The notes under the pieces: model-generated | The model's input: the letters and a program-made list of their open reading frames with translations, nothing else | What the model was told of the DNA's origin: nothing | The model's database searches: none | Position numbers and translations under genes: made by a program | Shown here: in pieces, positions 13,964 through 32,855 of the stretch | Position numbering within the stretch: the first letter of the stretch is position 1 | Layout: every line of letters begins with the position of its first letter | Assembly (NCBI GenBank): GCA_963807605.1 | Contig: CAWECG010000004.1 | Span: forward strand, 96,001-160,000 | From: Candidatus Bathyarchaeota archaeon | GTDB lineage: Archaea; Thermoproteota; Bathyarchaeia; 40CM-2-53-6; RBG-13-38-9 | DNA: 64,000 bases | Direction of reading: 5' to 3'

Positions 13964-14326
13964 GTGGATCTGACCGTGACCGACTTGAAAGTCTACGTTG
14001 ACGGCTCAGGGAAGAACGGTACCTACTGCTATCTTGTAGCAGGGTCTAACCCTCGAATATTCACAGAAGGAAATCTAACAAACAACCAGGCCGAGTACAA
14101 AGCAATAATTGCAGCACTTAGAGAGCTTCCGGGAGAAGACCTCACAGTGTATTCTGACAGTCAACTGGCTGTAAGACAACTGAACGGCATATACCAAATA
14201 AAAGACCCTGAACTTAGGAATCTGGCTTCAAGGGTTCATGGATTATGTCAAAACAGAGAAATCCACTTCAAATGGCTTCCGCGTGAACGAAATCTGGCAG
14301 GAAAGATACTTGAGAAGTTTGTTTGA
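13964..14326 (+). CDS. rnhA: Ribonuclease HI family protein
   Basis: YVDGS, TNNQAEY, YSDSQL and WLPRERN motifs. Confidence 0.88.
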   Translation: MDLTVTDLKVYVDGSGKNGTYCYLVAGSNPRIFTEGNLTNNQAEYKAIIAALRELPGEDLTVYSDSQLAVRQLNGIYQIKDPELRNLASRVHGLCQNREIHFKWLPRERNLAGKILEKFV

Positions 14327-32184: not shown

Positions 32185-32855
32185 ATGGTTGAGATCGCAG
32201 GCGTGGACGAGGCTGGGAGAAAGCCAAGCTGTACGGCTTCCCAAGAGGTCCACTTCTCGGTCCGCTAGTAATCGCGAGTCTGACTCTAAGAGATGGTCCG
32301 GCATCTCGCCTAAGCGGGCTTGGTGTTAGAGACTCAAAGCTACTTACCAGATCGGCAAGAAGCTTGCTGGTCCCAAAAATTCTCAATCTAGCAGAGAAAC
32401 ACCTTCTTGCAGAGATTGAACCGCCAGAAATTGATTCCGTGGTTTTAAGAGGTCGACCACTGATGAGACTGAATCTACTTGAGGCAAGATATGCTGCGAA
32501 GATCCTAAACGAGCTTAAACCCGAGACAGCCTATGTAGACGCTCCCGACACAAGCCCGGAGAGATTCGCCTGCCAAATCCTTCAACGCCTAGACGCCCCT
32601 CTCAGAATAATATCAGAACATCATGCTGACAAACTATACCCCATTGTCTCCGCGGCCTCCATTTTGGCAAAGGTGAGAAGAGACGAGATCGTCCGCGAAT
32701 TACACAAGGTCTACGGTGATTTTGGATCAGGCTACCCTTCAGATCCCAGAACAATCAAGTTCGTTAAGCAATGGATCCTAAGTAAGAGGTGTGATCTGCC
32801 TATAATGAGGAGAACATGGACTACCTTTCGAAATCTGGAACGCGAGCTGCTATAA
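32185..32855 (+). CDS. rnhB: Ribonuclease HII, two exons (32185-32219 and 32246-32855), 214 aa after splicing
   Basis: Spliced product MVEIAGVDEAGRGPLLGPLVIA...GVRDSKLL...YVDA..ADKLYPIVSAASILAKV.RD..FGSGYPSDP; next to fibrillarin/nop5. Confidence 0.92.
32220..32245 (+). other. 26-nt bulge-helix-bulge (BHB) intron in rnhB
   Basis: Central helix TGGG(32214-17)/CCCA(32240-43), two 3-nt AGA bulges, inner stem AAGCC/GGCTT; canonical cuts restore the reading frame. Confidence 0.85.

Follow-up and report, generated by a model that had tools for sequence, protein, structure and literature searches.

Analysis of the rnhB gene showed a reading frame interrupted by a 26-nt insert, which, judged from DNA comparisons, is in all likelihood a genuine bulge-helix-bulge (BHB) mRNA intron of the EndA/RtcB type. 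The gene is located in the window, that is, the whole 64,000-nt stretch of DNA that was analysed. The ATG at 32185 opens the reading MVEIAGVDEAGR, and the unspliced frame contained 27 aa followed by a TAG at 32266-32268. Excision of 32220-32245 (26 nt) gave a 645-nt coding sequence for a 214-aa RNase HII. The insert interrupts the codon of Arg12 in the DEAGRG (GRG) active-site motif, and the arginine of GRG has a role in sensing the ribonucleotide 2'-OH. The initial annotation had described this start codon, the short unspliced frame and the 214-aa product, together with a TGGG/CCCA helix, two AGA bulges and an inner stem with a 9-nt loop, and all of these were reproduced at the same positions. 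The features, numbered from the first letter of the window, were as follows.

32185..32219 (+): rnhB exon 1, with codons 1-11, D8 and E9 of DEAG among them, and the first two bases of codon 12 (Arg)
32203..32253 (+): outer pairing between the exons; the C32213-G32247 pair is invariant, 32203-32208/32248-32253 poorly conserved
32214..32217 (+): central helix, 5' (exon) strand, TGGG; 32214, the wobble base of codon 10 (Ala), co-varies with 32243
32218..32220 (+): 5' bulge AGA, invariant in 24/24 intron-bearing genes
32220..32245 (+): putative BHB intron, 26 nt, predicted to be cut between bases 2 and 3 of both bulges
32221..32239 (+): inner hairpin, 5-bp stem (32221-32225/32235-32239) and 9-nt loop; loop length variable among relatives
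32240..32243 (+): central helix, 3' (intron) strand, CCCA
32244..32246 (+): 3' bulge, AGA in this genome; seven variants in relatives, ATG, ACA and AAG included, each with A or G at its end, where the Arg codon is completed on splicing
32246..32855 (+): rnhB exon 2, the closing base of codon 12 followed by 202 codons and the stop TAA
32266..32268 (+): TAG terminating the unspliced rnhB reading after 27 aa

The rnhB product and the BHB element

Exon 2 corresponded to positions 9-198 of the 199 positions of the Pfam RNase_HII model (PF01351) and aligned with known structures of archaeal RNase HII starting at residue 12 of these, so the absent N-terminus is exactly exon 1. The joined product contained the PF01351 domain and the DEAGRG, DSK and C-terminal acidic motifs of RNase HII, and exact protein look-ups returned no match. 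The rnhB gene is single-copy in the host genome (2.65 Mb, 5 contigs, 94% complete). The host belongs to the class Bathyarchaeia, as a locus of a genome in its class (L103, G071) matched a record named Candidatus Bathyarchaeia (L031) at 100% identity along 2,206 nt. Its neighbours are an NTPase (NTPase_1) upstream, and DUF61, then fibrillarin and Nop5 on the opposite strand. An RNase HI gene (PF00075) is found at 13982-14278 (+) in the same window. Ribonucleotide repair had been proposed in the initial annotation to depend on splicing; this would hold for the excision of single ribonucleotides by RNase HII but not for all RNase H activity, since with an RNase HI gene present the removal of RNA:DNA hybrids need not depend on rnhB splicing.

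Soil metagenomes contain DNA nearly identical to the rnhB locus; in runs X1, X2 and X5, contigs carry the insert and cross its site gap-free, with one change, the loop variant C32234T, in the X1 and X2 contigs. The insert is thus not an assembly error, because it was found in independent DNA contigs, and the expectation that DNA would confirm it was borne out.

The core of the element is a 4-bp helix flanked by 3-nt bulges, one on each strand, and a single mismatch was seen in it over the 24 genes. Of 200,000 shuffles of the insert, 0 produced a BHB that restored the frame with 4 Watson-Crick pairs in the helix and at least 5 bp in the inner stem. The AGA repeat in this genome allows four adjacent cut registers to yield an identical mRNA. 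The minimum-energy fold from RNAfold showed a one-base slip of the register (z = -0.08 against shuffles), with the strict BHB 1.0 kcal/mol above it; folding energy by itself gives no evidence for the rnhB BHB, whereas the comparative data do. Rfam showed nothing for the insert region at E up to 1, and a self-splicing group I or group II intron was rejected on this blank result and on length, 26 nt against a ribozyme core of hundreds of nt. At the rnhB locus, no endonuclease ORF of the kind expected for a mobile intron was found within or adjoining the intron, and a sequence search showed no similar second copy elsewhere in the host genome.

Distribution, covariation and history of the insert

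Among 60 relatives, an rnhB match was obtained in 50 and the junction was read in 49. The insert was located at the same base in 21 of the 49 order-level relatives examined, distributed over the host's own family (11/11), f9 (5), f7 (4) and f4 (1), and the gene was continuous at the junction in 28 (f2, f3, f5, f6, f8 and f10). Two further named records, L058 (Bathyarchaeia) and L032 (labelled Nitrososphaerales), contained the insert, giving with the host genome a total of 24 intron-bearing genes. A further set of 30 class-level loci (L094-L123) was chosen by best Pfam score and is therefore biased toward intron-free genes. Insert length ranged from 19 to 31 nt across the 24 genes, with all three frames represented, and unspliced translation ended within 3-40 codons in every one; both in-frame inserts (21 and 27 nt) contained a TGA 3-4 codons in. 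Inserts of 22-27 nt were also present in all of 10 more metagenome contigs, mostly close to the 24 genes. An exact-pattern scan allowing 0-30 nt at the junction showed a joined junction in 0/10 of these DNA contigs, a count that is uninformative on splicing.

Covariation was computed on 20 distinct junction sequences, in which the central helix was paired at 98.8% and the inner stem at 91.9%. Two-sided changes occupied 28 cells against 10.3 in shuffles (reached in 0/500 shuffles), figures that are not probabilities, as the related sequences are not independent and kinship inflates the counts. Such changes were seen in all five inner pairs and one central-helix pair, and controls in which the partner was slid demonstrated 30-58% pairing against 82% in the true register. 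In the first pair of the helix, between the Ala10 wobble base and a base of the intron, UA was seen in 12 sequences, CG in 6, GC in 1 and GU in 1. The comparison of sister genomes suggested in the initial annotation thus yielded both presence/absence and compensatory stem changes. Its outer pairing stood in part: the C-G pair and the 6-bp stem are present in this genome and the C-G pair is invariant, but the 6-bp stem was just 61% paired across relatives and is not a conserved element, so that a single C-G pair closes the outer side and the flanking helices have a relaxed form.

Cutting after the second bulge base restored the frame and the conserved residues in 24/24 genes. A register shifted by +1 (cut after the whole bulges) also gave GRG in 24/24, so protein alone leaves the cut register unfixed. 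The first inner pair in f9 and f7, a G-C pair, is incompatible with the slipped register in these families. The A or G at the end of the 3' bulge would be required if this base completes an AGR arginine codon, as with a cut at bulge position 2; a purine preference of the enzyme could account for it as well. The Gly11 codon was GGG in 23 of the 24 intron-bearing genes, compared with 20 of 93 intron-free genes.

Exon 2 was of full length with conserved motifs in 23/24 genes, the remaining one stopping at a contig edge, and dN/dS was 0.08-0.57 in six unsaturated pairs. These values indicate that exon 2 is under purifying selection, and the pseudogene decay that would have spoken against an intron was absent. 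On the RNase HII tree (116 rows), the intron trait needs 7 changes, at least 4 of which are forced by well-supported branches. The tree backbone is weak, and both a single ancient gain followed by several exact losses and recurrent gains at the same site fit.

Some individual records showed other features. The same-genus relative L003 (G001) would give a spliced product with DEAWRG (GGG to TGG) and a central-helix mismatch, either a damaged allele or an assembly error. In L032, a 26-nt insert is located at the same site with a stem resembling that of family f9, while its RNase HII protein branches separately from the intron-bearing Bathyarchaeia; transfer or mis-binning is possible. The f8 RNase HII genes (L083, L087 and L090 from G036, G022 and G030, respectively), which are without the intron, contained an in-frame mini-intein of ~205-211 aa near the C-terminus at GDFG|SGYP (Pfam Intein_splicing, E 1e-20), starting with Ser and ending with His-Asn. 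The literature search returned no paper combining RNase HII, an intein and an intron.

Splicing machinery, companion inserts and rival explanations

The host genome encodes two EndA-family genes (PF01974, ~188 codons each; C4:303386 and C3:661701) and one RtcB, and therefore has the endonuclease and RNA ligase genes that a BHB intron calls for. Judged by eye, the residues of one EndA follow the catalytic-subunit pattern Tyr/His/Lys, and the other is without the His. Two unlike paralogues suggest an enzyme of the (alpha-beta)2 type. Such enzymes accept relaxed motifs (PMC5829648). ARAGORN gave 31 tRNA calls for the host genome, 25 with an intron and with unreliable boundaries, and several calls had odd anticodons; the low count and the odd anticodons point to multi-intron tRNA genes misparsed by ARAGORN. 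An identical stretch, probably an insertion sequence, recurs at at least 7 places (C1:152278, C1:415313, C3:532456, C3:1122137, C3:768963, C3:313205 and C4:9327), and one copy is ~1.5 kb from rtcB.

The initial annotation had guessed that the genome holds more mRNA micro-introns, and BHB scans and checks revealed BHB inserts in five further genes; excision of each brings back a conserved motif.

C3:1143681-1143699 (+): cbf5 (L124), 19 nt, directly after base 1 of the catalytic Asp codon
C1:148050-148014 (-): aIF5B, 37 nt, in the P-loop codons; removal restores GHVDHGKT
C1:210688-210718 (+): EF-2, 31 nt, just before the G1 motif; removal restores RNIGIIAH
C1:88060-88030 (-): argF, 31 nt, inside the STRTR carbamoyl-phosphate motif
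C3:875125-875156 (+): nadE (L158), 32 nt; removal restores GYFTKFGDG

The cbf5 gene is split at the site experimentally proven in Crenarchaeota (PMC2738675), which provides an internal positive control for the rnhB intron in the same genome. The cbf5 insert (17-23 nt) was present in 30/30 loci read, the best-scoring of the order with the host's own included (L124, L129-L157). Family models matched argF and nadE as two consecutive pieces, and EF-2 and aIF5B solely from the junction onward; for aIF5B, EF-2, argF and nadE, the evidence is from the host genome alone. The strict genome scan returned 8,643 hits, mostly chance, and missed cbf5 through a G-U pair. Relaxed scans listed mostly noise and missed EF-2 and, in one setting, rnhB itself; since known cases were missed, six BHB introns is a lower bound. 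The candidate at C3:900287-900318 was rejected as the gene is continuous in one frame, and several others that resembled gene junctions were dismissed. All six inserts are in or beside conserved motifs, a location that may partly reflect ease of detection. Taken from the sequences, mRNA splicing very probably affects several genes in these archaea.

Following established archaeal RNA processing, applied to an rnhB intron known here from DNA, the pre-mRNA would fold so that exon-1 bases 32214-32217 pair with the 3' end of the intron. A two-subunit EndA, probably (alpha-beta)2, would cut both 3-nt bulges behind their second base (after 32219 and 32245), and RtcB would ligate the exons and rebuild the Arg12 codon, with the 26-nt intron released and perhaps circularised. 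RNase HII would be made from spliced mRNA alone, and the unspliced message would give a 27-aa dead peptide. Most likely the intron is retained as a nearly neutral passenger, in a lineage very rich in tRNA introns and equipped with an EndA of broad specificity, and it is hard to lose because exact deletion alone restores the active-site motif.

Three other explanations of the insert were weighed. Ribosomal recoding, in which the RNA stays uncut and, as in the bypassing of T4 gene 60, the ribosome hops or shifts over a hairpin from one AGA codon to a matching one, would suit the AGA found at both insert ends and the hairpin between them in this genome. It is nevertheless very improbable, as the 3' triplet is AGA in only 3/24 genes, insert lengths in all three frames mean that no single shift suffices, and the exon-intron helix co-varies, which bypassing would not need. 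A pseudogene, broken by a short insertion that duplicated AGA, or else a faulty assembly, with RNase HI compensating, could draw on the RNase HI gene in the genome and on the Gly-to-Trp change in G001. Against such damage or error, which hardly deserves credence, stand the insert in independent contigs and in 23 other genomes, and an exon 2 that is intact (but for the one cut off by its contig edge), conserved in its motifs and constrained by selection. EndA might also cut the BHB and mainly destroy or silence rnhB mRNA, with ligation of the exons rare, just as yeast TSEN cleaves some mRNAs for decay instead of splicing (PMC10485636). This too is extremely unlikely, because there is no second rnhB copy and exon 2 alone is without D8 and E9, so the full-length enzyme under selection could arise only via ligation.

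A wider reading would treat the six spliced mRNAs as a coordinated EndA/RtcB checkpoint gating translation, rRNA modification, ribonucleotide repair and NAD/arginine synthesis. We regard this as doubtful, the regulation being conjecture and the six inserts being observed in DNA. Such a checkpoint would be an archaeal counterpart of regulated non-spliceosomal splicing. A near-neutral intron locked in an active-site motif is favoured over a regulatory switch.

Meaning and comparison with known systems

Reviews from 2020 and 2023 gave only cbf5 (coding) and HVO_1309 (5' UTR) as EndA-processed archaeal mRNAs, with the cbf5 intron limited to a small group. In the literature searched, with subscription papers mostly outside the search, no rnhB intron was described, the cbf5 intron was reported solely for Desulfurococcales and Sulfolobales, and splicing of an archaeal coding sequence had been shown for one gene only. 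An rnhB intron across several families, with five more in the genome, would make mRNA splicing an everyday process in part of the Bathyarchaeia, a class abundant in sediments. Such genes are truncated or overlooked by gene callers: rnhB loses its catalytic D and E, and EF-2, aIF5B and nadE appear defective, so that annotation and metabolic reconstructions are distorted. The genes also offer a system for studying how introns spliced by proteins come to lie in coding genes and why their sites are in active-site motifs.

Archaeal tRNA and rRNA BHB introns have the same motif and enzymes; the rnhB intron differs in its mRNA substrate, its want of a match elsewhere in the genome and of a homing endonuclease inside. 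Non-spliceosomal splicing of HAC1/XBP1 mRNA also uses a protein endonuclease and an RNA ligase, with ligation by RtcB, and removes a short frame-shifting intron, which is 26 nt in XBP1. Unlike rnhB, HAC1/XBP1 is cut by IRE1 at two stem-loops and is stress-regulated, and the shared 26-nt length is a coincidence, because insert length varies among relatives of the host.

In Haloferax volcanii, HVO_1309 carries a BHB intron in its 5' UTR (PMC7714728; PMC10485636) and is likewise an mRNA substrate of the archaeal splicing endonuclease; in contrast to rnhB, no reading frame is interrupted, and the host EndA is homodimeric. The cbf5 pre-mRNA intron of Desulfurococcales and Sulfolobales measures 16-44 nt (Watanabe 2002; Yoshinari 2006; Yokobori 2009, PMC2738675). 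Both it and the rnhB intron (19-31 nt here) are short and without an ORF, have BHB junctions with the cut between bulge bases 2 and 3, split an active-site codon, are patchy in relatives and occur in hosts with a two-subunit EndA. They differ in gene (rnhB) and class (Bathyarchaeia), in that splicing is proven for cbf5 and deduced for rnhB, and in that the rnhB intron is one of at least six in one genome, cbf5 included, unlike the crenarchaeal cbf5 intron. The rnhB intron would thus appear to work like the cbf5 intron, of whose kind it shows every feature testable in DNA.
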